This document shows, piece by piece, positions 20,648 through 56,126 of a DNA stretch of 64,000 bases. Origin of the DNA: Parachlamydiales bacterium (lineage in GTDB: Bacteria > Chlamydiota > Chlamydiia > Chlamydiales > JAFEGQ01); the NCBI GenBank assembly GCA_050250135.1, contig JBFWPF010000010.1, positions 780 through 64,779 on the forward strand. Direction: 5' to 3'. Made by a program: the position numbers and the translations under genes. The notes under the pieces are model-generated. The model searched no databases. It saw only the letters and a program-made list of their open reading frames with translations, and was not told the origin of the DNA. The stretch's first letter is position 1. The number at the start of each line of letters is the position of its first letter.

Positions 20648-20804
20648 CCCCTGATTGCGACCTATCGTCCGGGGGGCGTGGCAGATGGTGGTCAGATAGT
20701 GTACATCGTGACGAGGCCAGGTCTTTAGACCTGGGTGAGGAGGGATGTACACTAAATGGCCGCCAGCTGTCGATGCCGTCTAGACGATAGGTCGCAATCA
20801 GGGG
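20648..20804. repeat. 157-bp foldback MITE-like element, copy 1
   Basis: Terminal inverted repeats CCCCTGATTGCGACCTATCGTC... / ...GACGATAGGTCGCAATCAGGGG. Internal nested palindromes AGTGTACATC/GATGTACACT and CCAGGTCT-TT-AGACCTGG. Near-identical in length and sequence to 36516-36672. Confidence 0.85.
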
Positions 20805-20809
20805 TTTAA

Positions 20810-20850
20810 CCCCTGATTATGACCTATCGTCCAGAGGGCATCTGCATGGG
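20810..20850. repeat. Solo end (half copy) of the 157-bp MITE family
   Basis: CCCCTGATTATGACCTATCGTCCAGAGGGCATCTGCA matches the reverse complement of the right end of copy 2 (TGTAGATGCCCTCTGGGCGATAGGTCGCAATCAGGGG). Confidence 0.6.
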
Positions 20851-27690: not shown

Positions 27691-29322
27691 ATGCGGATCT
27701 ATGCTGCCCAGCTCAACCCCACCATCGGCGCCCTTAAGGGCAATACTCAGAAGATCCTCGCTGCGATCGACCGGGGACGGGAGCAGGGGGCCGACCTGAT
27801 CCTTCTCCCCGAGCTGGCCATCTCGGGCTACCCCCCCGAGGACCTCCTCCTCCTCGAGTCCTTTGTCCCTGCCTGCGAGGCGATGCTAGAGCCCATTATC
27901 GAGGCCTCCAAGGGGCTTGCGGTGGTAGTGGGTTTGCCCCGGCGGGCGACCAAGGGGGAGAAGCCCTTCCACAACAGTGCGGCCATCATAGAGGAGGGGA
28001 AGCTCCTTGGTTTTCAGGACAAAACCTGCCTCCCTACCTACGATGTCTTCGACGAGCGGCGCTACTTTGAGCCCTCCCCAAAAAACCAAGTCTGGAAACT
28101 CCGAGGGGAGAGGGTTGCGATCACCATCTGCGAAGATATCTGGGGATGGGAGGAGCCGATTGTGCTGGCCGACTACCGCCGCCACCCGGTCGAGGAGCTG
28201 GCCTCCGCTCGTCCTACCTTCCACCTCAACCTCTCCGCCTCGCCCTACAGCTTTGAGAAATTCCCGATGCGCCTCGAGGCCCTCCAACGGGCCTCCCAGC
28301 ACCTTAAGGTCCCCTCCCTCCTCTGCAACCAGGTCGGCGGCAACGACAGCCTGATATTCGATGGGCACACCTTCCTTATCGACCGGGAGGGGCGGGTGCT
28401 TGCCCGAGCCAAGGGCTTTGCGGAGGATAACCTCCTGATCGACACTCGCAAACTCCCCCCTCCCCTCGTCCTAGAAGAGAACCCTTATGGCGAGCTCTAC
28501 CGTGCCCTGGTGATGGGGGTACGCGATTACTTTGAGAAGAGCGGCTTTAAAACGGCCTGCCTCGGCCTCTCGGGGGGGATCGACTCGGCCCTTGTTGCCG
28601 CCATCGGCGCCGACGCCCTTGGCCCTCAGAACATCCTGGGGCTACTGATGCCCGGCCCCTACAATCCCCCCTCTTCCCTCGAGGATGCACAGCTGCTCGC
28701 CCAAAACCTCGGCATCAAAACCCTTACCCTGCCCATAGGGCCCCTCTACGAGACCTTTCTCACCACCCTCACCCCCCATTTTGAAGGGAAGGCCCCCGAC
28801 ACCACCGAGGAGAACCTCCAGGCGCGGATCCGGGGCATGCTCCTGATGGCGATCTCCAACAAGCATGGGCACATCGTCCTCAGCACTGGAAACAAGAGTG
28901 AGATGGCGACCGGCTATGCGACCCTTTATGGCGATATGTGTGGAGGGCTTGGTGTTCTCAGCGATGTTCCAAAGATGAAGGTCTACGCCCTCTGCAAACA
29001 CCTCAACCGGGAGGGGGAGCGGATCCCCCACAATATCCTGGTCAAGCCCCCGTCGGCCGAGCTTGCCGAGGGGCAGGTCGATGCCGATACCCTCCCCCCC
29101 TACTCGATCGTCGACCAGGTCCTCGAGGATTATGTCCAGCGCCACCTCTCTCCAGAAACGATTGCCGAGAGGCGCTCTCTCCCCTTTCCGATCGTGCTCG
29201 ACCTCGTCAAGCGGATCCACCGAAACGAGTACAAACGGCGGCAGGCTCCCCCCGGCCTTAGGGTCACCGAGAAGGCCTTTAGTGTCGGCCGCCGCTTCCC
29301 CATCGTCCAGAAATGGTCCTAA
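27691..29322 (+). CDS. nadE: Glutamine-dependent NAD+ synthetase (nitrilase domain + NAD synthase domain)
   Basis: 543 aa. N-terminal CN-hydrolase (LPELAISGYPPEDL, ICEDIW) and PP-loop LGLSGGIDSAL. Confidence 0.9.
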   Translation: MRIYAAQLNPTIGALKGNTQKILAAIDRGREQGADLILLPELAISGYPPEDLLLLESFVPACEAMLEPIIEASKGLAVVVGLPRRATKGEKPFHNSAAIIEEGKLLGFQDKTCLPTYDVFDERRYFEPSPKNQVWKLRGERVAITICEDIWGWEEPIVLADYRRHPVEELASARPTFHLNLSASPYSFEKFPMRLEALQRASQHLKVPSLLCNQVGGNDSLIFDGHTFLIDREGRVLARAKGFAEDNLLIDTRKLPPPLVLEENPYGELYRALVMGVRDYFEKSGFKTACLGLSGGIDSALVAAIGADALGPQNILGLLMPGPYNPPSSLEDAQLLAQNLGIKTLTLPIGPLYETFLTTLTPHFEGKAPDTTEENLQARIRGMLLMAISNKHGHIVLSTGNKSEMATGYATLYGDMCGGLGVLSDVPKMKVYALCKHLNREGERIPHNILVKPPSAELAEGQVDADTLPPYSIVDQVLEDYVQRHLSPETIAERRSLPFPIVLDLVKRIHRNEYKRRQAPPGLRVTEKAFSVGRRFPIVQKWS

Positions 29323-29435
29323 TTTCGACCCTATGGAGCGCTCATTTGGCTTGATTTTTGACCATACAGAGCGCCTATTTGCCTTGATTTTTAACCACCT
29401 TAACCTAAAAACAGCCTTGATTTTTAACCATATTT
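29308..29435. repeat. Array of ~4 degenerate tandem 33-34-bp repeats starting in the last codons of nadE
   Basis: Units: CAGAAATGGTCCTAATTTCGACCCTATGGAGCGCT / CATTTGGCTTGATTTTTGACCATACAGAGCGCCT / ATTTGCCTTGATTTTTAACCACCTTAACC... / ...AGCCTTGATTTTTAACCATATT. The first ~60 bp recur at 30921-30979. Confidence 0.8.
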
Positions 29436-29468
29436 TGCATAAGGTGATGAAAAACAGGGGATTGAATC

Positions 29469-30812
29469 GTGAAGCGCCTGATCCATGCCGATTTACGTAA
29501 GTGGAAAGGGAAGCCCAACCGTAAGCCTCTGCTTATCCGTGGCGCTAGACAGGTCGGAAAAACTCACGCAGTACGCACCCTAGCGGAGAGCTTTGAGGAC
29601 TTTGTGGAACTGAACCTGGAGAACGACCCTAAAGCCTGCACAGTCTTCGAGCCCGATCTAAAGGCTGATCGGATTCTCAGGGATTTAACCATCCACCTGA
29701 AGCGTCCCATCACGCCCGGAAAAACACTGCTCTTTATTGATGAAATTCAAGCGGCCCCCAAGGCTATTATTGCCCTCAGGTATCTCTATGAAGAGGTACC
29801 CGACCTGCATGTGATTGCTGCAGGATCGTTGCTGGATTTTGCGATTCAACAGGTCGGCGTCCCCGTTGGGCGGATAGAGTTCCTTTACATGTACCCCCTC
29901 TCCTTTGCAGAATTTCTCGTATCGATGGGCGCAAGTGGCCTATGCGGCCAAGTTCTAGAGCATCCAATCGACACTCCCATGTTCCCCCTGTTCCATGACC
30001 AACTGATTCGAATGCTCGGTGAATATCTGGTCATTGGTGGAATGCCAGAGGTGGTCAAAGGTTGGCGCGACACCCAAGATCCTGAACACTGCTTAACCAT
30101 TCAACATCGCATTCTTACCGCCTACCAGTATGATTTTCCCAAATATGCCAAGCAATTTCAGCTCAAGTATCTCGAGATTTTATTCCGCCAGCTACCGCAC
30201 TGGACTGGACAACGCTTCAAGTACTCCCAAATAGGCGAGGGTTATCGAAAACGGGAATTGGAGCCCTGCTTAGAGCTGCTTCGGACGGCTGGAATGGTTC
30301 ATCAGGTTATGCATACGGCCGGCCAAGGAATTCCTATTGGCTCTGATGTCAGATTTGATATCTTTAAGACCCTATTCCTAGATGTCGGCCTCACCCAAGC
30401 CCAGTTAGGCCTCGATCTAGCCGACTATTTTCTGAATCCCCAGGAAGCGCTTGTGAATAGCGGTGCCATTGCTGAAGCCTACGTAGGACAAGAACTGCTT
30501 GCCTATTCTCCCCCTTATAAAAAAAGTGATCTCTTTTACTGGGAAAGGTTGGTACGGTCCAGCGCAGCAGAGGTCGACTATCTCCACCAAGCGGGTCCGC
30601 ACATCCTACCCATCGAAGTGAAAGGCGGAAGAGGGAACACACTCCGATCACTCCACCGATTCCTCGAAACCCACCCCAAAACCCCCTACGGAGTCCGTTT
30701 TTCTACCCGCAACTACTCGAAGCATGACAACATCCACTCCTATCCCCTCTATGCAGTGATGCAATTCGCCAAATGGGATGGGCAGGAGGCTTGGGAGGCG
30801 CTCCTCAGCTAA
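29469..30812 (+). CDS. AAA+ ATPase with DUF4143-type C-terminal region carrying a PD-(D/E)xK-like motif (COG1373 family), paralogue 1
   Basis: 447 aa, GTG start. Walker A GARQVGKTH, Walker B LLFIDEIQ, C-terminal AEVDYL...ILPIEVKGG (D...ExK). Confidence 0.85.
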   Translation: MKRLIHADLRKWKGKPNRKPLLIRGARQVGKTHAVRTLAESFEDFVELNLENDPKACTVFEPDLKADRILRDLTIHLKRPITPGKTLLFIDEIQAAPKAIIALRYLYEEVPDLHVIAAGSLLDFAIQQVGVPVGRIEFLYMYPLSFAEFLVSMGASGLCGQVLEHPIDTPMFPLFHDQLIRMLGEYLVIGGMPEVVKGWRDTQDPEHCLTIQHRILTAYQYDFPKYAKQFQLKYLEILFRQLPHWTGQRFKYSQIGEGYRKRELEPCLELLRTAGMVHQVMHTAGQGIPIGSDVRFDIFKTLFLDVGLTQAQLGLDLADYFLNPQEALVNSGAIAEAYVGQELLAYSPPYKKSDLFYWERLVRSSAAEVDYLHQAGPHILPIEVKGGRGNTLRSLHRFLETHPKTPYGVRFSTRNYSKHDNIHSYPLYAVMQFAKWDGQEAWEALLS

Positions 30813-30885
30813 GTGGCAGAATTTCTTAGCTTAAACTTGAGGACGTCGCCAAAGCCAACGTCTTCCCAGCCACTACTTCCCCATG

Positions 30886-30979
30886 ACAAAAATGGTCGTG
30901 ATTTCGACCATCTAAGACATCAAAATGGTCGCTTTTTCGACCATATGGAGCATCCATTTGGTTTGATTTTCGACCACAG
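30886..30979. repeat. Array of 3 tandem 33-bp repeats, each with an ATGGTCG-N6-CGACCAT palindrome or its variant
   Basis: ATGGTCG-TGATTT-CGACCAT at 30892-30911 and ATGGTCG-CTTTTT-CGACCAT at 30925-30944 (33-bp period). The third unit is CCATTTGGTTTGATTTTCGACCAC. Confidence 0.85.
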
Positions 30980-31045
30980 ATTCTGCAATATGTTCATATT
31001 TAGAGAATTAGAAATATGGAGTGAGAAGGTATCGGAATGTCACGA

Positions 31046-31876
31046 TCAGCTGAGGACATCGGCGATATCAGAAACACCTAACTTGAGCATCAGGAGGCGG
31101 TCGAAGCCGACGGCGACGCCGCAGCAGTCGGGAAAGGGGCCAAGGGGCATCACCGTTTCGGGATAGACCTCCTTGCCTAGGGCCCCCCTCAGCTGGTTTT
31201 GCTCCAAAAGGCGCCGCTTGTGCTCTACCGGATCGGTCAGCTCATCATAACCATTCGCTAGCTCCATCCCCTGGAAAAAAAGCTCAAACCGCTCACTACC
31301 CCGCTCGCTTACCTTAGCCAGAGCGGCCTGCGAGGGGGGAAAATGGGTCACGATGTAAAAGGGCTCCCCTGATAGCTGCGGCTCAATTTTGGTCGCGAGG
31401 AGGTAGTTCTGCTGCTCTTCCGAAAGGGCGCCAGGGTCGATCCCCGCATGCCTCTGAAAGGCCTCCGAGTAGCTCATCACCTCGAGGGGGCGCTCTCCCA
31501 CAAACAGAGCGGCAAGGGCAGCGGTCTCCTCCCACATCTGCTGCAGGGAAAAGCCGAGGCGGTACCACTCGATCATCGCAAATTCGGGGCGGTGGCGCCT
31601 GCCCGACTCCCCATCTCGGAAGACATGGGAGAGCTGGTAGATGTCGCTAAGGCCCGCTTTTAAGAGGTTCTTCATCCCATATTCGGGCGAGGAGTGGAGG
31701 TACCACCGCTCCCCCATCACCTCGGCAGCAATCAGGTCGATATGGGCGTCGATGGAGGGGTCGGGTGAGAGGGCGGCGCAGTCGACCTCCATCACCCCCC
31801 GCTCATGGAAAAACTCCCGGACGCAGCGGAGCATCCGGGCCCGCTCCTTCAAATTACTTAGAGGAGCGGGAGACAT
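31046..31876 (-). CDS. epmA: Elongation factor P--(R)-beta-lysine ligase (EpmA/PoxA/GenX)
   Basis: Class II aaRS-like core. Aligns with E. coli EpmA from NLKERARMLRCVREFF (E. coli NLLKRAAIMAEIRRFF) to the C-terminal GVAVGFDRLLML. Start chosen at MSPAPL (31876); ATG 31912 is also possible. Sits directly downstream of efp. Confidence 0.85.
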   Translation of the reverse strand: MSPAPLSNLKERARMLRCVREFFHERGVMEVDCAALSPDPSIDAHIDLIAAEVMGERWYLHSSPEYGMKNLLKAGLSDIYQLSHVFRDGESGRRHRPEFAMIEWYRLGFSLQQMWEETAALAALFVGERPLEVMSYSEAFQRHAGIDPGALSEEQQNYLLATKIEPQLSGEPFYIVTHFPPSQAALAKVSERGSERFELFFQGMELANGYDELTDPVEHKRRLLEQNQLRGALGKEVYPETVMPLGPFPDCCGVAVGFDRLLMLKLGVSDIADVLS

Positions 31877-32426
31877 ACTCGCCAGTGCGGGTGTCGATCT
31901 TGACCACCTCATGCTGGTCGATAAAGATGGGCACCTGAACCTTAGCTCCCGTATCGGTAATGGCGGCCTTAAGGACCCGGCCCGACGCCGTATCCCCTTT
32001 GACCCCCGGCTCGGTCTCCACGATCTCCATATCGATGAAGGTAGGGGGGTTGACCAGCACTGGAGCCCCCTTGTAGGAGATCACCTCGTAGAGGAGATCC
32101 TCCTTAAGCCACTGCTCCGAATCGGCGATCACCGCATGGGGGACTGTGAGCTGCTCATAGGTCTGGTCATCCATAAAGACCGCATCCTGCCCATCCCGGT
32201 AGGAGAAGCGCATTTGAGCCTCAGCGACATCGGCTAGCTCGATCTTCTCACCTGACTTGTAGGTCCGCTCAATGACCCGTCCGGTTAGAAGCCCTTTCAG
32301 CTTAACCCGAGTGAAGGCCTGCCCCTTGCCCGGCTTGACAAAGTCGACCCCTACAATGACCCAGGGCTGTCCATCTACCTCGACCTTGAGCCCCGCCTTA
32401 AACTGGTTGGTTGCTATCTGCGCCAT
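31854..32426 (-). CDS. efp: Elongation factor P
   Basis: FVKPGKGQAFTRVKLK loop with the modifiable lysine, and C-terminal KIDTRTGEYVSR. Start at MAQIATNQF. Confidence 0.9.
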   Translation of the reverse strand: MAQIATNQFKAGLKVEVDGQPWVIVGVDFVKPGKGQAFTRVKLKGLLTGRVIERTYKSGEKIELADVAEAQMRFSYRDGQDAVFMDDQTYEQLTVPHAVIADSEQWLKEDLLYEVISYKGAPVLVNPPTFIDMEIVETEPGVKGDTASGRVLKAAITDTGAKVQVPIFIDQHEVVKIDTRTGEYVSRSSK

Positions 32427-32541: not shown

Positions 32542-33357
32542 ATGGATGCCCATAGCCCCGAAATTGCCGCGCATCAGGAGAAGATCGCCCGGGATACCCT
32601 CGAGCGCTACTCGGGCTCCCCGATCAACAAATTTCAAAATTACCTTATCTTAACTAACTTTGGCCGCTACGTCGATTACTTTGCCGATACGCGGGGCCTT
32701 GAGGTTTTCGAGGGGTCGATGTTCAAGGTGGCCCACAGCCCCGAAGAGGACATCAGTGTCCTCGACTTTAAGATTGGCTCCCCGGCGGCAGCCCTGGTTG
32801 TCGACGTTTGCGCCTTCCTCCCCTTCCAAGCGGTTCTCCTCCTCGGGATGTGTGCCGGCCTTCGCCGCCACTACCGGGTCGGCGATTACTTTGTCCCCAT
32901 CGCCGCTATTCGAGGTGATGGGACGAGCGACTTCTACTTTCCCCCTGAGGTTCCGGCCCTTGCCAACTTTGTGGTGCAGAAGGCGGTGACCGATGTCCTC
33001 CAGACCAAGGAGATCGAGTACCACATTGGGATCACCCACACGACCAACAAGCGGTTTTGGGAGTTCAACGACAAGTTCAAGGAGCGGCTGAAGGAGAACC
33101 GGGCCCAGGCCCTTGAGATGGAGTGCGCTACCCTCTTCCTCGCCAGCTACCGCCACAAGCTCCCCCTCGGCGCCCTCCTCCTCGTCTCCGATCTCCCCTT
33201 GGCGCGGGATGGGATCAAGACCAAGGAGAGCAGCAAGTTCGTCTTTGACACCTACATGGCCGATCATGTCGAGATGGGGGTAGAGATCCTCCATAGGACG
33301 AAGAGCATGAAGAAGCGGCATGTCAAGGGGATCCGCCGCGAAGCGATGGATGGGTGA
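32542..33357 (+). CDS. amn: AMP nucleosidase-like protein (PNP/UDP phosphorylase family, short form)
   Basis: 271 aa. GMCAGL, IRGDGTS and LEMECATLF motifs of the nucleoside phosphorylase-I fold. Layout is like the catalytic domain of AMP nucleosidase. Confidence 0.7.
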   Translation: MDAHSPEIAAHQEKIARDTLERYSGSPINKFQNYLILTNFGRYVDYFADTRGLEVFEGSMFKVAHSPEEDISVLDFKIGSPAAALVVDVCAFLPFQAVLLLGMCAGLRRHYRVGDYFVPIAAIRGDGTSDFYFPPEVPALANFVVQKAVTDVLQTKEIEYHIGITHTTNKRFWEFNDKFKERLKENRAQALEMECATLFLASYRHKLPLGALLLVSDLPLARDGIKTKESSKFVFDTYMADHVEMGVEILHRTKSMKKRHVKGIRREAMDG

Positions 33358-34097
33358 ACACCCTACTCTTCCTTATGGTGAGTCTCCATATCCTACCCGG
33401 CACTGGCCCCCGCACCCTCCTCCTCTTCCATGGCTATGGGGGGAGCCAAGAGATTGCCGACCAGATTCGCGCGGCCGATGTCACCGATGCTACCCTTGTT
33501 AGCTTCAACTTTCCCGACCACGACCTTACCGACTATGACCCCGAAAGGGCCACCTTTGGCACCCCAGGTGAGCTGATTCCTGCTCTGGAGGCCCTCACAC
33601 AGCTAATCGTGACCGAGGGCAGGCGCAATGTCGACCTCTACGGCTTTTCAGCAGGGGGCGGCGCCCTCATCAATCTGATCGCCCTGCTCAATAGCGACCG
33701 CTATCAGGTGGCCCACCGACAGGAGCTCCTCGAGGTGATCCAACAAGGTAGTATCTTGCTCGACGCTCCCTTCAAATCGATCGAAGAGATCATCGCCTTT
33801 CGGGGCCCATCGGAGGAGTTTTCCCTAATGGCGGAGCGGTATGCGCGTAACCGGATGAGGCCAATCGACTCCCTGGAGGGGTGGAAGGGGCTAAGATTAA
33901 ATGTGATTATCTATTTCGAGAGGCCCGATGAAGTCCTCTCCAACCGGGACGACTCCCTCTTTGTCGAGCGGCTCCGGCAGGTAAACAAAGACGGAACAAA
34001 CACGATCCTTTTCGGCACCACCGGTGGCCACAACGCCCTCCACCCTGCTCTCTGGAGCGCTTACCGTCAAGCGTCAAAATCTCTATCTCGTTCATAA
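33354..34097 (+). CDS. Alpha/beta-hydrolase fold protein
   Basis: 247 aa. LLLFHGYGG oxyanion region and nucleophile elbow GFSAG. 4-nt overlap with amn. Confidence 0.6.
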   Translation: MNTLLFLMVSLHILPGTGPRTLLLFHGYGGSQEIADQIRAADVTDATLVSFNFPDHDLTDYDPERATFGTPGELIPALEALTQLIVTEGRRNVDLYGFSAGGGALINLIALLNSDRYQVAHRQELLEVIQQGSILLDAPFKSIEEIIAFRGPSEEFSLMAERYARNRMRPIDSLEGWKGLRLNVIIYFERPDEVLSNRDDSLFVERLRQVNKDGTNTILFGTTGGHNALHPALWSAYRQASKSLSRS

Positions 34098-34177
34098 CCA
34101 ACCATTTTTGATTGACCAAAAGACGATCGATCGTAAAATGGTCGCGACCAAAATACGATCCATCGTAAAATGGTCGT
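34098..34177. repeat. Tandem 32-bp repeat x2 (29/32) plus a leading variant unit, ending 3 nt before the ATPase-2 start codon
   Basis: GACCAAAAGACGATCGATCGTAAAATGGTCGC (34114-34145) / GACCAAAATACGATCCATCGTAAAATGGTCGT (34146-34177), preceded by CCATTTTTGATTGACCA. Contains ATGGTCG|CGACCAA at 34137-34150. Confidence 0.85.
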
Positions 34178-34180
34178 AAG

Positions 34181-35389
34181 ATGAGAAGACGAGTCTATAA
34201 CGCTGCTATTGAGGCCCAGTTTGAGGAAGACCGGCAGATGCTCTTCCTAATGGGGCCACGTCAGGTAGGAAAGACGACAGCTAGTTTGCTTTCAGGTCAC
34301 GACGATGAGGACCTGTACTATTTCAATTGGGACGACCTAGAACAAAGAGCTCTATTAACAAAAGGGGCCTCTGCCATTGCTGAGGAGGTCGATCTCGAGG
34401 CGCTCAGAGAGCCCAAGCCTGTGATCATTTTTGATGAAGTTCATAAGGCACCCCATTGGAAAGCCCTTCTTAAGGGGTTTTTCGACCTATATGGAACGCT
34501 AGCCCATATCCTTGTGACCGGCAGTGCCCGCTTAGATGTCTACAAGAAAGGGGGAGATAGCTTGATGGGGCGCTATTTCCGTTACCGCCTTCACCCTTTC
34601 TCGGTTGCCGAACTTGTCAACCCTACACTGCCCAAAGGAGAAATTCGATCGCCAAAATCGCTCCCGAAGGCCGACTGGGAGCGTCTATTGACCTTTGGGG
34701 GATTCCCCGAACCCTATTTGAATGGGACGAGGCGCTTTTACAACCGATGGCGCACCATGCGCAATCACCAGGTCTTCCGCGAGGACTTGCGGGACCTCAG
34801 CCGGGTTCAAGAGCTTTCGCAGATTGAACTCTTAGCTGAACTGATGCGCCTGCAAGCGGGCTCTCTCACCAGCTATCACTCGTGGGCAACTCACGTCCGT
34901 ATCTCCTCCGATACCGTGCGCCGTTGGGTTGAGCTCCTACAATCGGTCTTCTATTGCTTTGCGATCCGCCCTTGGTCAAAAAACGTCGGGCGCTCCCTGC
35001 TGAAGGAACCAAAGTTCTATCTGTATGACTGGTCACTGGTCGATGACGAGGGGGCCCGCTTTGAGAATCTCGTAGCCTCTCACCTCCTAAAAGCGGTCCA
35101 TTTCTGGAGTGACTACGGCTTTGGAGAGTATGGCCTCTTCTATATCCGCACTAAGGAGAAGCGGGAGGTCGATTTTTGCGTCACAAAAGAGGGGAAACCT
35201 TGGATACTCGTCGAGGCCAAGGTGGGAAAGGAGAGGCTCTCTCCGCAGCTGGGCTATTTTCAGGAGAAGTTGGGGTGCCCCTATGCCTTTCAGGTGGTGC
35301 GCGATCTCCCCTATGTCAACAAGGACTGCTTTGCACAAGATCGCCCCCTCATTGTCCCCGCCAGAACATTCCTCTCGCAGCTGATTTAA
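34181..35389 (+). CDS. AAA+ ATPase with DUF4143-type C-terminal PD-(D/E)xK-like motif (COG1373 family), paralogue 2
   Basis: 402 aa. Walker A GPRQVGKTT, Walker B VIIFDEVH, C-terminal REVDFCVTKEGKPWILVEAKVG. Roughly half the residues are identical to paralogue 3. Confidence 0.85.
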   Translation: MRRRVYNAAIEAQFEEDRQMLFLMGPRQVGKTTASLLSGHDDEDLYYFNWDDLEQRALLTKGASAIAEEVDLEALREPKPVIIFDEVHKAPHWKALLKGFFDLYGTLAHILVTGSARLDVYKKGGDSLMGRYFRYRLHPFSVAELVNPTLPKGEIRSPKSLPKADWERLLTFGGFPEPYLNGTRRFYNRWRTMRNHQVFREDLRDLSRVQELSQIELLAELMRLQAGSLTSYHSWATHVRISSDTVRRWVELLQSVFYCFAIRPWSKNVGRSLLKEPKFYLYDWSLVDDEGARFENLVASHLLKAVHFWSDYGFGEYGLFYIRTKEKREVDFCVTKEGKPWILVEAKVGKERLSPQLGYFQEKLGCPYAFQVVRDLPYVNKDCFAQDRPLIVPARTFLSQLI

Positions 35390-35496
35390 CCTCTGATTAC
35401 ACGCTCCCATACACCTTGATCTACAGGTCTGGTCCCTTGCGTGTTATCGACCGGTTGTTAATAATGACTTTCTTAAACCAATGGAGGAATGTCGTT

Positions 35497-36432
35497 ATGG
35501 AGATTCTACCCTCCTCGTCTGAGTCGAGTGTACCCTACCGCACGCTACCGCTCGGCTACCCGGTCTTTAGCGTTGCCTTCAGTCCAGATGGGCTGATCCT
35601 CGCATCGGGAAGCACTGACCACAAGGTCCATCTATGGGACACCATAACATTGGAGGAAAAAGGCTCCCCACTCAGTGGGCACACCGGGACCGTCTGGTGC
35701 CTGGCCTATCACCCGCAAGGAACTCTTCTGGCCTCAGCAAGCGTGGACAAGACGATCCGCCTATGGGATATGGCAAGCAAAAAGGTGACGTTTGTCCTTG
35801 AGGGACACACAAGCTATGTCTACTGTGCGGCCTTCAGCTCCAATGGACAACTCCTCGCCTCTGCAAGTGAGGATAGGACGGTCCGCCTATGGGATACCTC
35901 CACCGGCAAGGAGTTGCCTTTCTCTCCGCTTGAAACGCATGAGAGCCCGGCCTGGAGCGTTGCGTGGGCCCACAACGGGAAGACCCTGGCCTCGGGAACC
36001 GGGATGGGAAAAATCCACCTCTGGGAGGCCGCAACAGGGAAAAAGAAAGGGGCCCCTGTGGAGGGACATACGGCCCCTGTCCAGAGCCTTACGTTCTATT
36101 CGGATGACCATACCCTCGTCTCGGGATCTGGCGACACCACCGTTCGTTTTTGGGATCCCTCCGCAGGGAAGGAGATCCCTCCTCCCATAACCTGGCATAC
36201 ATCTGGGGTCAACAGCATCGCCCTAGGCCATAGCGAAAAGATTCTAGCCTCAGGCAGTAACTATCCGACCATTGGCCTTTGGGACGCTACCACGAGAAAA
36301 GGCAAAAGGACCCTAAGCGGCCACACAGGTAGTGTTCAGTGCGTTGCTTTGAATCCTACAAGCACGACCCTCGCGTCGGCAAGCCTCGACGAAACGATCC
36401 GCCTCTGGGACATCAGCCACCTGCTAATTTAG
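35497..36432 (+). CDS. WD40-repeat protein
   Basis: ~311 aa with about seven repeats of ...LASGS.D.T(V/I)(R/H)LWD.... GGAGG lies 9 nt upstream of ATG 35497 (ATG 35464 is an alternative). The ORF-track start at 35176 overlaps the previous gene and is rejected. Confidence 0.85.
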   Translation: MEILPSSSESSVPYRTLPLGYPVFSVAFSPDGLILASGSTDHKVHLWDTITLEEKGSPLSGHTGTVWCLAYHPQGTLLASASVDKTIRLWDMASKKVTFVLEGHTSYVYCAAFSSNGQLLASASEDRTVRLWDTSTGKELPFSPLETHESPAWSVAWAHNGKTLASGTGMGKIHLWEAATGKKKGAPVEGHTAPVQSLTFYSDDHTLVSGSGDTTVRFWDPSAGKEIPPPITWHTSGVNSIALGHSEKILASGSNYPTIGLWDATTRKGKRTLSGHTGSVQCVALNPTSTTLASASLDETIRLWDISHLLI

Positions 36433-36515
36433 AGCTGTTACAATCTTATCCTGGGGGTGGCTAGTTATTTCCCTTCTTGCCCGACCCTGAGTATCCGTAC
36501 CCGTTAGACCTTTTA

Positions 36516-36672
36516 CCCCTGATTGTGACCTATCGTCCAGGGGGCGCGGCAGATGGTAGTCAGATAGCGCACATCGTGACGAGGCCAGGTCTTTAGACCT
36601 GGGTGAGGAGGGATGTCCGCTAGATGGCCACCAGCTGTAGATGCCCTCTGGGCGATAGGTCGCAATCAGGGG
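36516..36672. repeat. 157-bp foldback MITE-like element, copy 2
   Basis: CCCCTGATTGTGACCTATCGTCC...GGCGATAGGTCGCAATCAGGGG. Same length and internal CCAGGTCTTTAGACCTGG hairpin as 20648-20804. Confidence 0.85.
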
Positions 36673-36685
36673 TTTTATCCTGGGT

Positions 36686-36796
36686 CTAGGAGATCGCCTT
36701 CGTGACGAGCTCTTCGAGGTGGGCAGGGCCCTCGATTTTGGGGAGCATGAGCTCGCGATGGCTCTCCCTCTTCTCAATGGAGAGGGTGAGCTTCTC
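36686..36796 (-). pseudogene. Displaced duplicate of the last ~37 codons of mfd
   Basis: The minus strand reads GEKLTLSIEKRESHRELMLPKIEGPAHLEELVTKAIS*. The intact mfd ends LEKSTLSIEKRESHRKLMLPKIEGPAHLEELVTKAIS*. The central ~62 nt have a single mismatch. There is no upstream mfd sequence. Confidence 0.85.
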
Positions 36797-36908
36797 GCCC
36801 CTGATTGTCCCTGCCAGGTACGTGTTCACGAGGGGGAGTCCTCTCACTAGGGGCGGGGGCTACCCACGTGAATATGTACCCAGCCAGGGCCTTCTTGTCT
36901 CAGTTGGT

Positions 36909-38120
36909 CTAGACCAGTTGAGAGAGAAAGGAGCGGGCGGAGACGATGCGAGGGGTCGGATCAAGAAAGCAGGTCTGGTGACTATAAGGCTGATCAAAGA
37001 CAACCTGGAGGGCATATTGGGGTCTAAGCTGCATTTGAAAGTGCGCAAGTGAGGGGCTGATCTGCCGCGAATTGCCTAGCTTTACCTCGACTAGCATCCA
37101 GGGCTTTCCATTGTACGTGACCAAGAAGTCAACCTCTCGCTTCTCCTTGTCCCGGACATAGTGAAGGGTAAATACCCCCATCCCACAGTCGGTCCAAAAA
37201 TCGGTCGCCTTAAGAAGGAAACAGGCCACCATATTTTCGGCCCTCGCTCCAGGATCACTGAGAAGTGACCAATCGGTCAGGTAGTACTTGGGCTCTTTGA
37301 GAAGAGATCGGGCAACACTATGCGCATAGGGCCTTACCTCAAAACAAACGTAGAGTGAAATGAGGTGTTTGAGCCACTGCATGACAGTGGTATGGCTGAT
37401 CTGTACCTTACGAGCTAGCGAGGCATAGCTGGTCAAAGAACCGACCCCAGCCCGCAACATCTGAATGAGCAACTCCATCTGGGAAATTTCCCGAATTCGG
37501 GTTAGGTCACGCAGGTCCTCATGGAGCAGTTGATCCCACCGGTGGAGCGACCACTGGGTATGGTAGGCCTCTTCCCCTCGTAGGAGGGGATCGGGAAATC
37601 CCCCAAATCGCCAGAGGGCCTCGTAGAGGGAGTCTTCGATTTCACAAGGGGCGGGCCGAACGGCAATGGGTGTTACCTCGGGCTCCACAAGCTCTCTAAT
37701 GGTGAAGGGATGAACGTGGTGGCGAAAGTACCGCCCCATCAAGCTGTCGCCCCCTTTCTGGTAGACATCGAGGCGGGCGCCTCCCGTCACCAAAATATGG
37801 GCTAGGTTAGGATAGAGATCATATAACCCCTTCAAGAAGAGCTTCCACGAGGGATAACGGTGGATCTCATCAAAAATAAGGAGAGGGACCGGCTCTTCCA
37901 TCAGGCCAAGCTTAGCCTCCTGCCCTAGCGCTCTCCCCCCCTGCTGGATCTTGTCACGGTCGTTAGGATCATCCCAGGTATAATAGAGGACTCGAGGCCA
38001 GTCCTCCCCTACGTTGACACCTAGCGTGGTCTTCCCCACCTGCCGAGGCCCCATGACAAAGAGCATCTGCCGGTTTCTCTGGAAGTGGCCGGTAAAGACC
38101 TGGTGGTAAAAGCGGCGCAT
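36909..38120 (-). CDS. AAA+ ATPase with DUF4143-type C-terminal PD-(D/E)xK-like motif (COG1373 family), paralogue 3
   Basis: 403 aa from ATG 38120 (AAGGAG lies 7 nt upstream; the ORF-track TTG at 38141 is less likely). Walker A GPRQVGKTT, Walker B LLIFDEIH, REVDFLVTYNGKPWMLVEVKLG. The stop codon lies inside the palindrome TGGTCTAGACCA. Confidence 0.85.
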   Translation of the reverse strand: MRRFYHQVFTGHFQRNRQMLFVMGPRQVGKTTLGVNVGEDWPRVLYYTWDDPNDRDKIQQGGRALGQEAKLGLMEEPVPLLIFDEIHRYPSWKLFLKGLYDLYPNLAHILVTGGARLDVYQKGGDSLMGRYFRHHVHPFTIRELVEPEVTPIAVRPAPCEIEDSLYEALWRFGGFPDPLLRGEEAYHTQWSLHRWDQLLHEDLRDLTRIREISQMELLIQMLRAGVGSLTSYASLARKVQISHTTVMQWLKHLISLYVCFEVRPYAHSVARSLLKEPKYYLTDWSLLSDPGARAENMVACFLLKATDFWTDCGMGVFTLHYVRDKEKREVDFLVTYNGKPWMLVEVKLGNSRQISPSLAHFQMQLRPQYALQVVFDQPYSHQTCFLDPTPRIVSARSFLSQLV

Positions 38121-38154
38121 AACGGGCTCCTTCACCCACAAGTGTACCAGAAAT

Positions 38155-38316
38155 CTTCATTTGGTCGGATTTTGCCCCAAATGCCGAAATTCCGGGGATT
38201 TTGTCGGGTAATTTCTGACCAAATGAAGGTTTTTTCAGGGTTGATAATCAGCAACTTAATGAATTTTTTTTCCTTTTCCTGACTTTTTGAGTGCCTTGTT
38301 TCATTTGGTCGGATTT
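38155..38316. repeat. Structured spacer between ATPase 3 and mfd: 17-bp direct repeats plus a 12-bp inverted repeat
   Basis: TTCATTTGGTCGGATTT at 38156-38172 and 38300-38316. CTTCATTTGGTC (38155-38166) is inverted as GACCAAATGAAG (38217-38228). Confidence 0.85.
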
Positions 38317-38318
38317 CT

Positions 38319-41300
38319 CTAGGAAATGGCTTTGGTCACCAGCTCTTCGAGGTGGGCAGGGCCCTCGATTTTGGGGAGCATGAGCTTGCGATGGCTCTCC
38401 CTCTTCTCTATGGAAAGGGTCGACTTTTCCAGCTTTAGGGCGGTGATCTGGAAGCGAGAGGCAACGGTGCGGATCCGCATCAGGTGGTAAAACCACAGGG
38501 CCTCCTCTGGGGGCGTGCCGAAACGGTCCTTGAGTTCATCAAAGAGGTCGTCAACATCGGCTTCGGTAGGCGCATCCCCAAAACGGCTGTAGAACTCGAG
38601 GCGGAGGGTCGATTCGGGGATGTAATGCTCGGGAAGGTAGGCGCGCTGAGGGAATTCAAGCTTGACCTCGGTGAGAGTGTGGGGCGTTTTCCCTTGGAGC
38701 GACTGGACCATTCTTTTGAGCATCTTGCAGTAGAGGTTGAAGCCGATGGCGGAAACATGGCCCGACTGCTCCGTGCCCAGGATGGAGCCGCCGCCGCGGA
38801 TCTCAAGGTCGCGCATGGCGACTTTAAAGCCGCCGCCATGAGGGCCTAGCTGCTCGAGGACATCGAGACGCTCCTTTGAGACGGCGCTGGGAGGGCGCTT
38901 TTTGGAGGTGAGGAAGTAGGCATAGGCCCTGCGGTTCCAACGGCCCACTCGGCCGCGCATCTGGTAGAGGTCGGCAAGGCCATGCCGATCGGCCCGCTCA
39001 ACGATAATGGTGTTGGCGTTGGGGACATCAAGGCCGTTTTCAACGAGGGTAGTGGCAACGAGGATCTGAATCTTACCGGTGCGGAAGGCATGGAAGATGG
39101 TGTCGAGCTCATCGCCCGACATCTGCCCATGGGCAACCCCGATGCGGGCTTGCGGGAGGTCTTGCCGGAGGCGGTCGGCCACGCCGTAGATGGTCTCAAC
39201 GCGGTTGTGGATAACGAGCGCCTGGCCATCACGGGCAAGCTCGCGGAGGAGGGCGTTTTTGGTTTTCTCCGCATCCTCCTCGCCAACGTGAGTCTTGATG
39301 GGGAGGCGGTCTTGGGGAGGGGTGGCGATGATCGAGAGGTCGCGACCCCCCATGAGAGCGAGGTAGAGGGTGCGGGGTATGGGCGTTGCCGAGAGGGTGA
39401 GGCAGTCGACCCCTGCTCTAAAAGCCCGGATCTTCTCTTTGACCCGAACGCCAAACCGCTGCTCCTCGTCGACGATAACGAGGCCAAGGTTGGAGAAGTG
39501 GACGTCGCTGCTGATGATGCGGTGGGTGCCGATCAGGATGTCGAGGGAGCCTTCAGCAAGGTGCTTGAGGGTGGCCTTTTGTTCCTTGGGGGTGCGGAAG
39601 CGGGAGAGGACACCGATCCGAACGGGAAAGTTCTCCATCCGCTGGGAGAAGTTATCGAAGTGCTGCATGGCGAGGACGGTGGTGGGGACGAGTATCGCCA
39701 CCTGCTTGCCTCCGTCGATGACCGCCTTAAAGGCGGCCCGCATCGCCACCTCGGTCTTGCCATAGCCGACATCGCCGCAGACGAGGCGGTCCATCGGTTT
39801 GGGCTGCTCCATATCCTGCTTAACGTCGCGGATCGCCTTGAGCTGGTCGGCCGTCTCGACGTAGGGGAATTCCGATTCGAAGAGGAGGGTCTCCTCGCCA
39901 TCGGGTGGGAAGGCAAAGCCGCCGGCAATCTCCCGCTCGGCATGGGCCTTGAGCATCTCTTGAGCGTATTTTCGGATCGCCTCTTCAGTCTGAGCGCGGA
40001 CCCGGGCCCACTTGCCGCTCCCCAGGGTGTGGAGGACCGGTTTCTCCTCTTTGCCGCCAACATATTTGTTGACCAGGTAGGACTGCGCGAGGGGGACAAA
40101 GAGTTTTCCTTTAGAGGCATACTCGATGGCCAGGTACTCGGCGGTGTTCCCGTCGGTGTCATCCTTTTTGACAATGCCGAGGTAGCGGCCGATGCCGTGG
40201 TGGAAGTGGACGACGAGATCGCCGTCGGTGTAGTCGACCATCTCCTGGGGGGCGCTGCTGTAGACCGCCCGCTTTTGCTCGCGGCGGACCTTGTAGTGGT
40301 GGGTCAGCTCTGTGATAGGAAGGAGGGTGAGGCCATCCAAGGTAAAACCGCTTGAGAGGTACCCCTCGTGAACAGCGGCGACCTTGGTAATCCCCATCTG
40401 CTCGAGGAGGGCGCGGAGCCGCTTTTCTTCGCGGGAATTTTCGCAGATGAGATGGAGCTCGGTATTGTCGGGAATCCCCTCCGAGAGGGTGTGGAAGGGG
40501 TTTTTCCACCGGTAGGCCGAGAGGCGCTTGTCGAAGAGGGGGAAGGTGAGCGGATGGGGGGAGGCGCCCGAAGAGTAGTAGTCGACGCCGGGAGGAACTT
40601 CGATGTCACCGAGGGCGTCGATCGGAGTCGCGGGCCAGTAGAGTTTCTGGTAAGGGGCGGCTTTGTCCATCCAGTCGGCGAAGGCCTTGCCTCCGAGGCC
40701 GAGCGCGACGAGGCGGTCTTCAAGAGCGAGGAGGTCATCGAAGGCGATGCAGGTGTTCTCACCGAGGTAGTCGAAGAGGGTGGCGCTCTTGTCGCCGGTA
40801 AACTCATCGACTAGCGTAAGAGTGAGCTCCTTGACCTCGCCAGTTGAGCGCTGACTCCCCGGATCGAAGGGGCGGATCTTCTCTATCTCGTCTCCAAAGA
40901 ACTCGATCCGGTAGGGGGCAAGGCTGCTTAAGGGGAAGAGGTCAACGATCCCGCCGCGCACGGCAAACTCCCCCTTATCGGCGACAACAGGGCGGCGGAC
41001 AAAGCCGGCTCCCCCTAGCTCTTCGATGAGCCACTCGGGAGGGTATTCTTGCCCCACAGTGAGGTGGAGATCCCCCTTCTGGAACTGGTCGGGGGGAATC
41101 ATGGGTTGGAGGGCCGCCTGGACCGGAGCGAGGAGGATCTGAGGGGTCTTGGCCGAAAGGAGGACCTTGAGGACCGAGTAGCGATCCCCGACCACATCGG
41201 GGCTGGGGGCGATCCCCTCAGAAGGGAGGTTCTCCCAAGCGGGAAGCTCGTGGACATTTTTTTGAAAGTAAAGGAGATCCTCATAGAGGCGCCCCTCCCG

Positions 41301-54513: not shown

Positions 54514-55134
54514 ATGCCCGCAACACTGCAACAACAGACCCTTCCCGACCTCGAGTACGACTACAACGCCCTCGAGCCGGTGATCAGCGCCGAAATCATG
54601 GAGCTCCACCACAAAAAGCACCACCAGGCCTACATCAACAACTACAACAAATTGGCCGAGCAACACCACGAGGCCGAAGCCAAAGGGGATGTCGCCAAGA
54701 TGATCGCCCTCCAGTCGGGGCTGAAATTCAACGGGGGGGGCCACGTGAACCACACGATCTTTTGGACCAACCTCGCCCCCCAAAACAAGGGTGGGGGAAA
54801 GGCTCCAAGCGGCCCCCTTGCCGATGCGATCAAAGCCCAGTGGGGCTCCCTGGATGCCTTTATTGAAAAATTTAATGCGCGCACAGCGGCGATTCAAGGG
54901 TCGGGATGGGGATGGCTAGGTTACTGCCCTGAGGATAAACGCCTTGAGATAGCGACCTGCGCAAACCAAGATCCCCTCAGCACCGAAGGGCTAGTCCCCT
55001 TACTCGGGGTCGATGTCTGGGAGCACGCCTACTACCTCCAGTACAAGAATGTCCGCCCCGATTACCTCAAGGCGATCTGGAAAGTGATCAACTGGGCCAA
55101 TGTAGCTGAGCGGTATCAACGCGCTAAGGGTTAG
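54514..55134 (+). CDS. sodA: Fe/Mn superoxide dismutase
   Basis: [28 protein letters not shown] and [17 protein letters not shown] lies 7 nt upstream of ATG 54514, preferred over the ORF-track GTG 54487. Confidence 0.9.
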
Positions 55135-55202
55135 GTTTTTTCTTTACTTGTAATAATTAGGGGAGACCCTATAAAATAGATTATTACAAATAGGGAGCTA
55201 TT

Positions 55203-56126
55203 ATGGGACTCTTTTCCCGAGTGAAGCCAAAGCTGCAGGCGCTGCCTAAAGCCAAAGAGAATTTTAACGGCTGGCAGAAGTGTGAGGGGTGTGAGGAGCT
55301 GATCCACCAGAAGGACCTGGAGAAAAACCTCCAGTGTTGCCCGAAGTGTGACCACCACTACCGCCTTTCGGCTAAGGTCCGGATCGCTACTCTTACCGAC
55401 CCCGACTCTTTTAAGGAGCTGTTCGGGGAGATTCAGCCGGTCGATGCCCTCCACTTTGTCGACACAGAGAGCTACAAGAACCGGATCAAGGCGGCCCAGA
55501 AGCGGTCGGGGGCAAAGGATGCGGTGGTGACGGGGATAGGGATGATCCGCTCCCATCCGGTGGCGCTTGCTGCCCTCGACTTTGATTTTATGGGGGGATC
55601 GATGGGGTCGGTGATGGGGGAAAAACTCACCCGCCTGATCGAGCATGCAGCCGAGAAGGGCTTGCCGCTGGTGATCGTATCGGCCTCAGGCGGAGCGCGG
55701 ATGCAAGAGTCGTTTCTGTCGCTGATGCAGATGGCCAAGACCGCTTCGGCCCTAAACAAGCTGTCGGAGAGGGGGCTCCCCTTTATCTCGGTCCTCACCC
55801 ACCCCACCTCGGGCGGCGTGACCGCCTCTTTTGCAGCGCTTGGCGATGTGATCATCGCTGAGCCTAAAGCGCTCATCTGCTTTGCTGGTCCCCGGGTGAT
55901 CGAGCAGACCATCAAGCAGACCCTCCCCGAGGGGGCACAGCGCTCCGAATTCCTTCTGAAACATGGGATGATCGACCGGATCGTCCCCCGAAGCAAGCTG
56001 CAGGGGACCCTTGCCACCTTACTCGAGTACCTGACGGGAAATGGGAAGCAGGCAACGCGGATCTCCAGCCAAGAGCTGGTCTCTTCACTCAAACAGTTGA
56101 TCAACACTGCCGATGAAAAAAATTAA
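55203..56126 (+). CDS. accD: Acetyl-CoA carboxylase carboxyltransferase subunit beta
   Basis: 307 aa. N-terminal zinc ribbon [13 protein letters not shown]...CPKCDHH, and a carboxyltransferase core with FMGGSMGS. Confidence 0.9.

Follow-up and report, generated by a model that had tools for sequence, protein, structure and literature searches.

A PDC-S01 gene with a 33-bp repeat array, probably inserted as a single-gene cassette at the 3′ end of nadE in a Parachlamydiales genome

The window, that is, the whole stretch of 64,000 nucleotides analysed here, comes from a metagenome-assembled Parachlamydiales genome. It contains three paralogous ATPase genes of the predicted defence family PDC-S01, which we call P1, P2 and P3, in the gene order nadE, P1, convergent epmA-like and efp genes, PNP_UDP_1, hydrolase, P2, WD40, P3 and mfd. 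The main subject is P1, located between direct repeats at the extreme 3′ end of nadE. The G+C content at P1 is 0.49–0.54, compared with about 0.59–0.61 in the flanking housekeeping genes, and all three ATPase genes lie in stretches of lower G+C than their neighbours.

P1 matches the PDC-S01 profile PDLC04788 of PADLOC-DB v2 over residues 1–434 of its 447 (E = 9.2e-136), while P2 and P3 match another PDC-S01 profile, PDLC04790 (E about 5e-46). In Pfam, P1 carries AAA_14 (82.3 bits, cut-off 27) followed by DUF4143 (85.2 bits, cut-off 28.1). This combination (COG1373) is present in all three proteins. P2 and P3 share 52% identity, and P1 only about 20% with either of them. An AlphaFold2 (AF2) model of P1, computed from a 138-sequence alignment, reached a pLDDT value (predicted local distance difference test) of 93.9 and consists of an AAA+ core, a helical lid, a winged helix (helix 261–273, hairpin 277–283/294–303) and an alpha/beta nuclease core. 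D370, E383 and K385, forming the D...ExK motif of PD-(D/E)XK nucleases, are invariant across the 138 sequences, and the catalytic-motif residues sit on model strands 368–375 and 378–384. The nearest folds in the Protein Data Bank (PDB) were the archaeal AAA+ proteins 2qen and 2fna, then ORC/Cdc6, RFC and STAND ATPases; a comparison of P1 with the PDB by sequence gave only noise. As modelled, P1 joins an ORC/Cdc6-like AAA+ ATPase to a winged helix and a predicted PD-(D/E)XK nuclease. P1–P3 share the architecture reported for PDC-S01, an ATPase fused to a PD-(D/E)XK domain (PMC12988326; PMC3424549; 10.1101/2024.01.29.577857). The family has been listed as PD-(D/E)XK no. 100 (PMC3424549) and as the fourth most common predicted prokaryotic defence gene, experimentally unvalidated (PMC12988326; 10.1101/2024.01.29.577857), with about 39,000 copies counted in one survey (PMC12988326).

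The initial annotation had described P1 as bracketed by direct repeats of about 60 bp, and both stretches that it quoted are present in the sequence. When formally aligned, positions 29311–29370 and 30923–30980 were identical in 50 of 61 columns (local alignment score 62, against 16.7 ± 2.2 and a maximum of 27 in 300 shuffles). The similarity of roughly four-fifths, first judged by eye, stands, and the single small indel becomes three small gaps. These flank repeats are members of one family spaced at 33 bp, with four units upstream (U1–U4, starting at 29311, 29344, 29377 and 29410) and three downstream (D1–D3, starting at 30890, 30923 and 30956), in agreement with the tandem arrays of three to four units initially noted. 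Pairwise, the units at this locus are 39–76% identical, and U1 is closer to D2 (0.76) than to D1 (0.64). The palindrome ATGGTCG-N6-CGACCAT occurs three times in the window, where 0.19 copies are expected, and all three lie in the arrays flanking P1; AAATGGTCG is confined to the P1 locus and the region before P2. On the minus strand, D1 and D2 form 7-bp-stem hairpins followed by T-runs (30890–30944), a terminator-like arrangement for the convergent epmA–efp operon. The epmA-like gene lies 57 bp past D3 and is intact.

The homology between the two flanks is not limited to the array units, but reaches 23–35 bp inside nadE: positions 29295–29333 pair with 30876–30914 at a score of 41 (500 shuffles, 13.4 ± 2.3, maximum 22). 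At 30887–30901, the sequence reads CAA AAA TGG TCG TGA (QKWS*), whereas the live nadE ends in CAG AAA TGG TCC TAA, so that the live and displaced QKWS* codons are synonymous. The displaced codons are preceded by TTC CCC AT and a 2-nt deletion (reading F P .. Q K W S stop). The NAD synthetase family has a conserved native C-terminus of the form ..PIVQKW, and the nadE of the window ends in ...RRFPIVQKWS. Because PIVQKW is the native end of the family, it is the downstream copy that represents a displaced, decaying nadE terminus. The initial annotation had correctly recognized a copy of the nadE terminus in the repeat, although its register was one unit off: the displaced terminus is in register with unit D1, and not with the stretch at 30921. 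As read from these alignments, the duplicated segment is approximately 29288–29370 versus 30869–30980 (85–110 bp), the downstream copy having one extra unit. What lies between the duplicated flanks is, as initially proposed, a single-gene unit, of about 1.5 kb (29371–30868). The features of this and the neighbouring loci are listed in Table 1.

Table 1. Coordinates of the features discussed, numbered from the first nucleotide of the window.
Feature	Position	Strand	Basis or remark
nadE, glutamine-dependent NAD+ synthetase	27691..29322	+	Pfam CN_hydrolase and NAD_synthase; its 3′ end is the putative insertion point
Upstream duplicate (as aligned): final 35 bp of nadE, U1 and most of U2	29288..29370	+	Alignments
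Upstream array, four 33-bp units U1–U4	29311..29442	+	Family core GCCTTGATTTTTAACCA in U3 and U4
P1, 447-aa protein of the PDC-S01 family, predicted AAA+/winged-helix/PD-(D/E)XK	29469..30812	+	GTG start
Tail of the probable cassette, P1 stop codon to downstream duplicate	30813..30868	+	Alignment boundary
Downstream duplicate (as aligned): decayed nadE terminus (30869–30901) fused to D1–D3	30869..30980	+	Alignments, sequence reading
Downstream array, three 33-bp units D1–D3	30890..30988	+	D1 and D2 are perfect ATGGTCG-N6-CGACCAT palindromes
epmA-like lysyl-tRNA-synthetase paralogue	31046..31912	-	Pfam tRNA-synt_2; convergent with nadE and P1
Two 32-bp units containing TGGTCGCGACCA, directly before P2	34114..34176	+	Tandem Repeats Finder (TRF): period 32, 2.0 copies, 93% matches
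P2, second PDC-S01 paralogue	34181..35389	+	No flanking duplication
Displaced mfd 3′ end, downstream of P3	36685..36796	-	Alignment
P3, third PDC-S01 paralogue	36909..38141	-	Pfam, PADLOC
P3 leader, repeated CATTTGGTC..CGACCAAATG motifs	38142..38317	-	Sequence
Live mfd 3′ end, active copy of the 112-bp duplication	38318..38429	-	Alignment

Arrays of this kind accompany the gene family well beyond the window. We fetched 80 metagenomic loci with P1 homologues (37–58% identical). A spacing scan covered the 260 bp preceding the start codon. Of 72 upstream regions, 66 yielded a qualifying repeat pair; among these, the prevailing spacing between direct repeats was 33 bp (46 loci) or 32 or 34 bp (another 7 loci). 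Under a strict periodicity score, an array with a 33-bp period was detected upstream of the gene at 37 of 65 loci, inside the gene at none and downstream at one, the latter being the P1 locus of the window. The arrays typically have three to four units placed directly before the gene, and at the homologue loci they stop 10–60 nt short of the start codon. A repeat finder re-confirmed the array at seven out of seven loci, each with three units, spaced at 33 bp in six cases and at 32 bp in one, which is located on a plasmid of the cultured Criblamydia sequanensis (strain CRIB-18; NZ_LK031773.1, homologue at 54775–56061). In the P2/P3 subfamily, GACCA(T/A)TTG motifs recur at 32-bp spacing.

The sequence of the unit varies by locus, yet many loci share an oriented core, YTTG-N-HWTTT, whose version at P1 is GCCTTGATTTTT. 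On the coding strand upstream of the gene, this core is about 18-fold enriched compared with the other strand, shuffled sequences, the gene interior and the downstream region, and 24 of the 29 spacings between successive matches are exactly 33 bp. Since the motif was picked by eye from the same data, only these contrasts count. Units within an array are 60–94% identical, with the short core shared and the spacers free. Unit sequence and protein identity covary across loci (Spearman 0.30, a value reached in 0 of 300 permutations), which shared descent alone could explain. The units do not behave as tandem sigma-70 promoters, given that promoter-like sites numbered 0.54 per 200 bp against 0.39 in shuffled sequences, without 33-bp spacing, and a promoter scan of the window placed none in the arrays. 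Nor is read-through from a co-directional upstream gene a general explanation, as only 32 out of 50 upstream neighbours are co-directional. The conservation of the upstream array across dozens of unrelated loci indicates that the arrays are a cis element of the family and not mere insertion scars, and hence that most of the upstream ‘flank’ of P1 belongs to the cassette. The direct repeats of about 60 bp, initially taken as duplicated flanks, are thus partly an integration duplication and partly the cis element that the cassette family carries.

Flanking duplications were assessed by aligning, for every gene, its 400 bp of upstream sequence to its 400 bp of downstream sequence, at an alignment score of at least 40, using other open reading frames (ORFs) of at least 300 aa from the same loci as controls. 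Direct repeats flanked the homologue at 9 of 68 loci, compared with 3 of 391 control ORFs (Fisher p = 3e-6), and one of these three controls was P1 itself on its Logan contig. The other two positive controls (L094 7495–8874 and L051 6585–8552) encode low-complexity proline- or glutamine-rich proteins and not ATPases. At the eight clearest loci, the repeats are 40–182 bp long and unrelated from locus to locus, the upstream copy stops just short of the array, 128–219 bp ahead of the start codon, and the enclosed unit measures 1.47–1.76 kb. The tail after the gene at the other repeat-flanked loci ranges from 0 to 253 bp. In most cases the repeats duplicate one end of an adjacent gene. The repeated sequence corresponds to 139 bp from the 3′ end of the upstream ORF at locus L067, to the 3′ end of an aminotransferase gene at L135, whose new final 11 codons enter the first array unit, to the stop-to-terminator segment of the upstream gene at L048, and to the first 16 codons of the downstream gene at L119.

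Five pairs of cassettes share 79–91% DNA identity over the leader (73–136 bp) and the gene only. Their similarity ceases between -6 and +23 nt from the stop codon, and their flanks are unrelated even by tblastx. A 2016-bp contig (L083, VAOZ01125806.1) has an exact 101-bp terminal overlap, which implies a 1915-bp circular or tandem assembly path. Apart from a P1-type gene and a 33-bp array, this path holds only about 340 bp of apparently non-coding DNA. Two further arrangements were observed in the family. In loci L065 and L114, the two cassettes share 90% identity over a stretch that starts 107 nt into the gene and ends 23 nt beyond its stop codon, with unrelated leaders and unrelated first 107 nt; to judge from this pair, array and N-terminus may be exchanged as a module. 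In two loci from the sequencing project of the window (L136 and L137), a PDC-S01 gene 56% identical to P3 follows a fumarase gene and a 137-aa ORF, and is preceded by a single palindrome, GACAATTTGAG-N8-CTCAAATTGTC, in place of an array.

The mfd locus follows the same logic as the nadE locus, as the initial annotation had suggested, with a 112-bp duplicate of the mfd 3′ end whose final codons are synonymous. The live and displaced ends encode the same last eight residues (ELVTKAIS*); the six consecutive final sense codons differ at synonymous third positions only, and the 23 codons before them are nearly identical. A GACCAAA motif resembling those of the P3 leader is created in the live mfd end. 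At P2, the flank-to-flank alignment score (18) equals the null. Database copies of P3 begin at the ATG at 38120 (403 aa) and not at the TTG at 38141, and the ATG is probably the true start. A protein identical to P3 is filed under a ‘Candidatus Obscuribacterales’ metagenome-assembled genome (MAG), suggesting a binning conflict or a transfer. Positions 36490–36680, in the gap that separates the WD40 gene from the displaced mfd end, hold a near-perfect hairpin of about 160 nt (RNA fold -107.7 kcal/mol, z = -7.8). Its 20-nt terminal arms recur in inverted pairs at 20648/20785 and 20810 (within 20648–20829) and at about 23132. Judged by its sequence, it is a separate palindromic family resembling miniature inverted-repeat transposable elements (MITEs) or repetitive extragenic palindromic (REP) elements, unrelated to the ATPase arrays.

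Comparison with relatives of the host places P1 in a variable interval. A scan of genome contigs with nadE retrieved none above 52% identity and no chlamydiae, and the best match in a protein search with nadE was 62% identical (locus L128). There, the gene order is HSP90, SNF, Fer2-reductase, nadE ... epmA, efp, PNP and mfd, and nadE is separated from epmA by two unrelated genes on the minus strand. The PNP gene directly adjoins the mfd 3′ end, so that the block at 33354–38318 of the window (hydrolase, P2, WD40, palindromic element and P3) is missing. Different cargo follows nadE in Protochlamydia, and the neighbourhood of nadE differs in Parachlamydia. Relatives with a nadE about 60% identical that keep the nadE...epmA–efp...mfd synteny lack the ATPase after nadE, and neither a 33-bp array nor the palindrome was found in the region after nadE in three relatives. 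Synteny with L128–L130 marks the epmA-like gene as the right border of the variable interval. The initial annotation had envisaged relatives in which nadE abuts epmA with a single array; this arrangement was unseen in the relatives compared, where the interval holds other cargo. The nadE–epmA and PNP–mfd intervals are therefore variable hot spots in chlamydial genomes. Searches of viral contigs with the P2/P3 alignment retrieved no relatives, and among Vibrio and Acinetobacter plasmids compared as filled versus empty, related records either carry the gene or miss the whole region.

We consider it probable that the segment at 29371–30868 is a horizontally acquired single-gene PDC-S01 cassette, consisting of an array leader and the gene, that inserted at the 3′ terminus of nadE with duplication. 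The integration event would have left two copies of the nadE terminus and the first array units, the upstream one keeping nadE intact and the downstream one being the old terminus, now decaying. The array may serve as a phased binding platform for the winged helix of the cassette’s own protein, as suggested by an oriented core that is conserved while the spacers drift, a period of three helical turns and an ORC-like protein. Such a platform could act in autoregulation, as an operator, and/or in an end-marking complex at the left end of the cassette.

Two routes of integration can be envisaged. In one, a circular copy with a surrogate end of the host gene would recombine by a single crossover; in the other, the nuclease would make a long staggered cut, and exchange between strains would follow. 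At nadE, mfd and L119, the live and displaced ends differ synonymously, which argues that the copies diverged within working genes and fits either the crossover of a circular copy with a surrogate end or an inter-strain exchange after insertion. Conversely, that related cassettes occupy unrelated sites with unrelated repeats argues for a repeat generated out of the target during insertion, for instance through widely staggered cuts. Both routes may have operated in sequence. Going further, PDC-S01 genes might be autonomous single-gene mobile cassettes, whose protein assembles on its own array at the left end of the cassette and drives insertion at gene ends with duplications of 40–180 bp, leaving the host gene intact; we regard this broader proposal as tentative and rather doubtful.

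Several observations weigh against the insertion of a cassette at nadE, or fit other histories as well. No true empty site was seen, since no close relative is available (nadE at most 62% identical). The P1 locus is atypical in that its duplicate holds array units and one extra unit, while the repeats of the other eight loci lie outside the array; this suggests re-use of the site or recombination between arrays, which would fit as well as a simple insertion. A role as epmA terminator could, from the sequence, maintain D1 and D2, and this may be why they are still perfect palindromes. The units show no more than a mild enrichment in dyad symmetry, and strong palindromy was accordingly rejected as a general property of the units. 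Identical homologue proteins were found only in identical contexts, none in differing ones, which gives no indication of very recent hopping. Finally, the control set consists mostly of core genes and not of other recently acquired ones, and the enrichment in flanking repeats could thus reflect recent acquisition in general.

Among the alternatives, a local rearrangement without mobility seems unlikely, though less so than the others. In it, a tandem duplication of nadE end, array and ATPase, or unequal crossing-over between two arrays, would have ended with the second gene copy being lost and an orphan array and a nadE pseudo-terminus left behind. It would account for a downstream copy with cassette-type units and one extra, for the uniqueness of this downstream array (1 of 65 loci) and for the greater similarity of U1 to D2 than to D1. 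However, a 1.3-kb gene would have had to vanish completely and precisely, with epmA left intact 57 bp after D3; the synonymous differences at nadE and mfd are those expected of alleles that diverged as working genes, not of a young duplicate; and the same flanked arrangement is found again at unrelated loci whose repeat consists purely of host sequence. We hold it still less probable that a tyrosine or serine site-specific recombinase acted in trans, the repeats then being attL and attR that carry the target gene’s 3′ end. A hallmark of genomic islands is that direct repeats take in the 3′ end of the target gene and keep the gene intact, and the P1 repeats have this composition. Repeat length varies by lineage. 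Yet no recombinase is encoded in the 1.5-kb unit, no recombinase or transposase was found among the identified genes at about 21–41 kb, and Pfam searches detected no DDE, HUH, serine or tyrosine recombinase domains. Cassettes that are 79–91% identical occupy unrelated sites with unrelated repeats, so that a new specificity would be required each time, and the association is with this one gene family.

An equally improbable alternative is that the array acts as RNA, its repeats being transcribed, bound by the nuclease and holding it inactive as in type III toxin–antitoxin systems. Loci of the ToxIN type have tandem repeats of 30–40 nt immediately before a nuclease gene in a defence context, which the P1 architecture resembles, and the core motif is strictly strand-specific. 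Against this, the units share only a short core at 60–94% identity, unlike the near-identical units of RNA antitoxins; the upstream array gave no signal of RNA structure (z = -0.28) and the arrays no match in Rfam even at E <= 1, nor any tRNA gene; no terminator separates the array from the gene in the 10–60 nt gap; and the protein combines a winged helix with an ORC-like fold. Moreover, the upstream neighbour is divergent at 18 of 50 loci, and transcription would therefore have to start within the array. Least credible, and largely refuted, is the view that the arrays are generic REP-like or terminator repeats of the genome, unrelated to the ATPase. The minus-strand hairpins of D1 and D2, terminator-like for epmA, and the existence of a separate palindromic repeat family in this genome would favour it. 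The initial annotation had named REP-like scatter, or arrays in relatives without the ATPase, as what would speak for such a view. Instead, the motifs occur in the 64-kb window only beside the three ATPase genes, which led us to reject dispersed repeats of the REP or bacterial interspersed mosaic element (BIME) type, they are missing after nadE in relatives, and homologous arrays accompany the gene in unrelated organisms.

In the PDC-S01 literature searched, the 33-bp array, duplications of gene ends, sharp cassette boundaries and cassette-like mobility are nowhere mentioned, and the upstream arrays and the movement of these genes between genomic contexts appear to be undescribed. The cassette behaviour suggests that the genes spread as discrete units that target gene ends without a known recombinase. 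If the proposal of autonomous mobility were true, PDC-S01 would represent a class of mobile elements without a DDE, HUH, tyrosine or serine recombinase, and its embedding in defence loci would reflect insertion behaviour at least as much as a defence role. Should the protein mediate insertion, caution would be due with defence predictions made through ‘guilt by embedding’; should it not, the array would still be an undescribed regulatory element of thousands of genes. In either case, a phased, family-wide array offers an experimental handle, as a candidate binding site, operator or assembly platform.

Known systems resemble the P1 unit in part. It shares with genomic islands at gene 3′ ends the repeats of the target 3′ end, the intact gene and the decaying displaced end, and differs in having no integrase, a size of about 1.5 kb with one ORF, and repeats that are unrelated between related cassettes. 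Free-standing homing endonuclease genes are likewise lone nuclease genes between conserved genes with synonymous recoding at the junction; homing, however, leaves no flanking duplications, and perfect putative recognition palindromes persist beside P1. An integron cassette was rejected, as the repeats lie 5′ of the gene and are not an attC at its 3′ end, with no integrase among the identified neighbours. Insertion sequences and transposons were rejected as well: the right end coincides with the stop codon at several loci, leaving no room for a right-end site, the duplications are 40–182 bp and not of a short fixed length, and no transposase domain was found. Type III toxin–antitoxin loci (ToxIN-like) share the tandem repeats of 30–40 nt directly before a nuclease gene, but they were discarded because the protein belongs to another family (not ToxN/AbiQ), the units are 39–76% identical, there is no intervening terminator and the upstream array gave no signal of RNA structure.

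The remaining likenesses concern proteins that bind repeated DNA. A mini-replicon, with the array as iterons and the gene as Rep, was rejected: relatives occur on 58 of 72,556 plasmids, all of at least 24 kb and with other replicon types, no small plasmid has it as its sole gene, and the 1.9-kb circular contig is ambiguous. Archaeal Orc1/Cdc6 and their origin recognition boxes likewise combine an AAA+/winged-helix protein with adjacent repeated short DNA elements. P1 adds a C-terminal PD-(D/E)XK domain, its repeats are direct with a strict 33-bp period and not inverted around an unwinding element, and three PDC-S01 copies lie within 10 kb of one chromosome, where no evidence of a replicon function was found. 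Iteron replicons differ in the period of their repeats (about 22 bp, against 33 bp here) and in the protein fold, but they share with P1 phased direct repeats before the gene of a winged-helix protein, an arrangement in which autoregulation is plausible.

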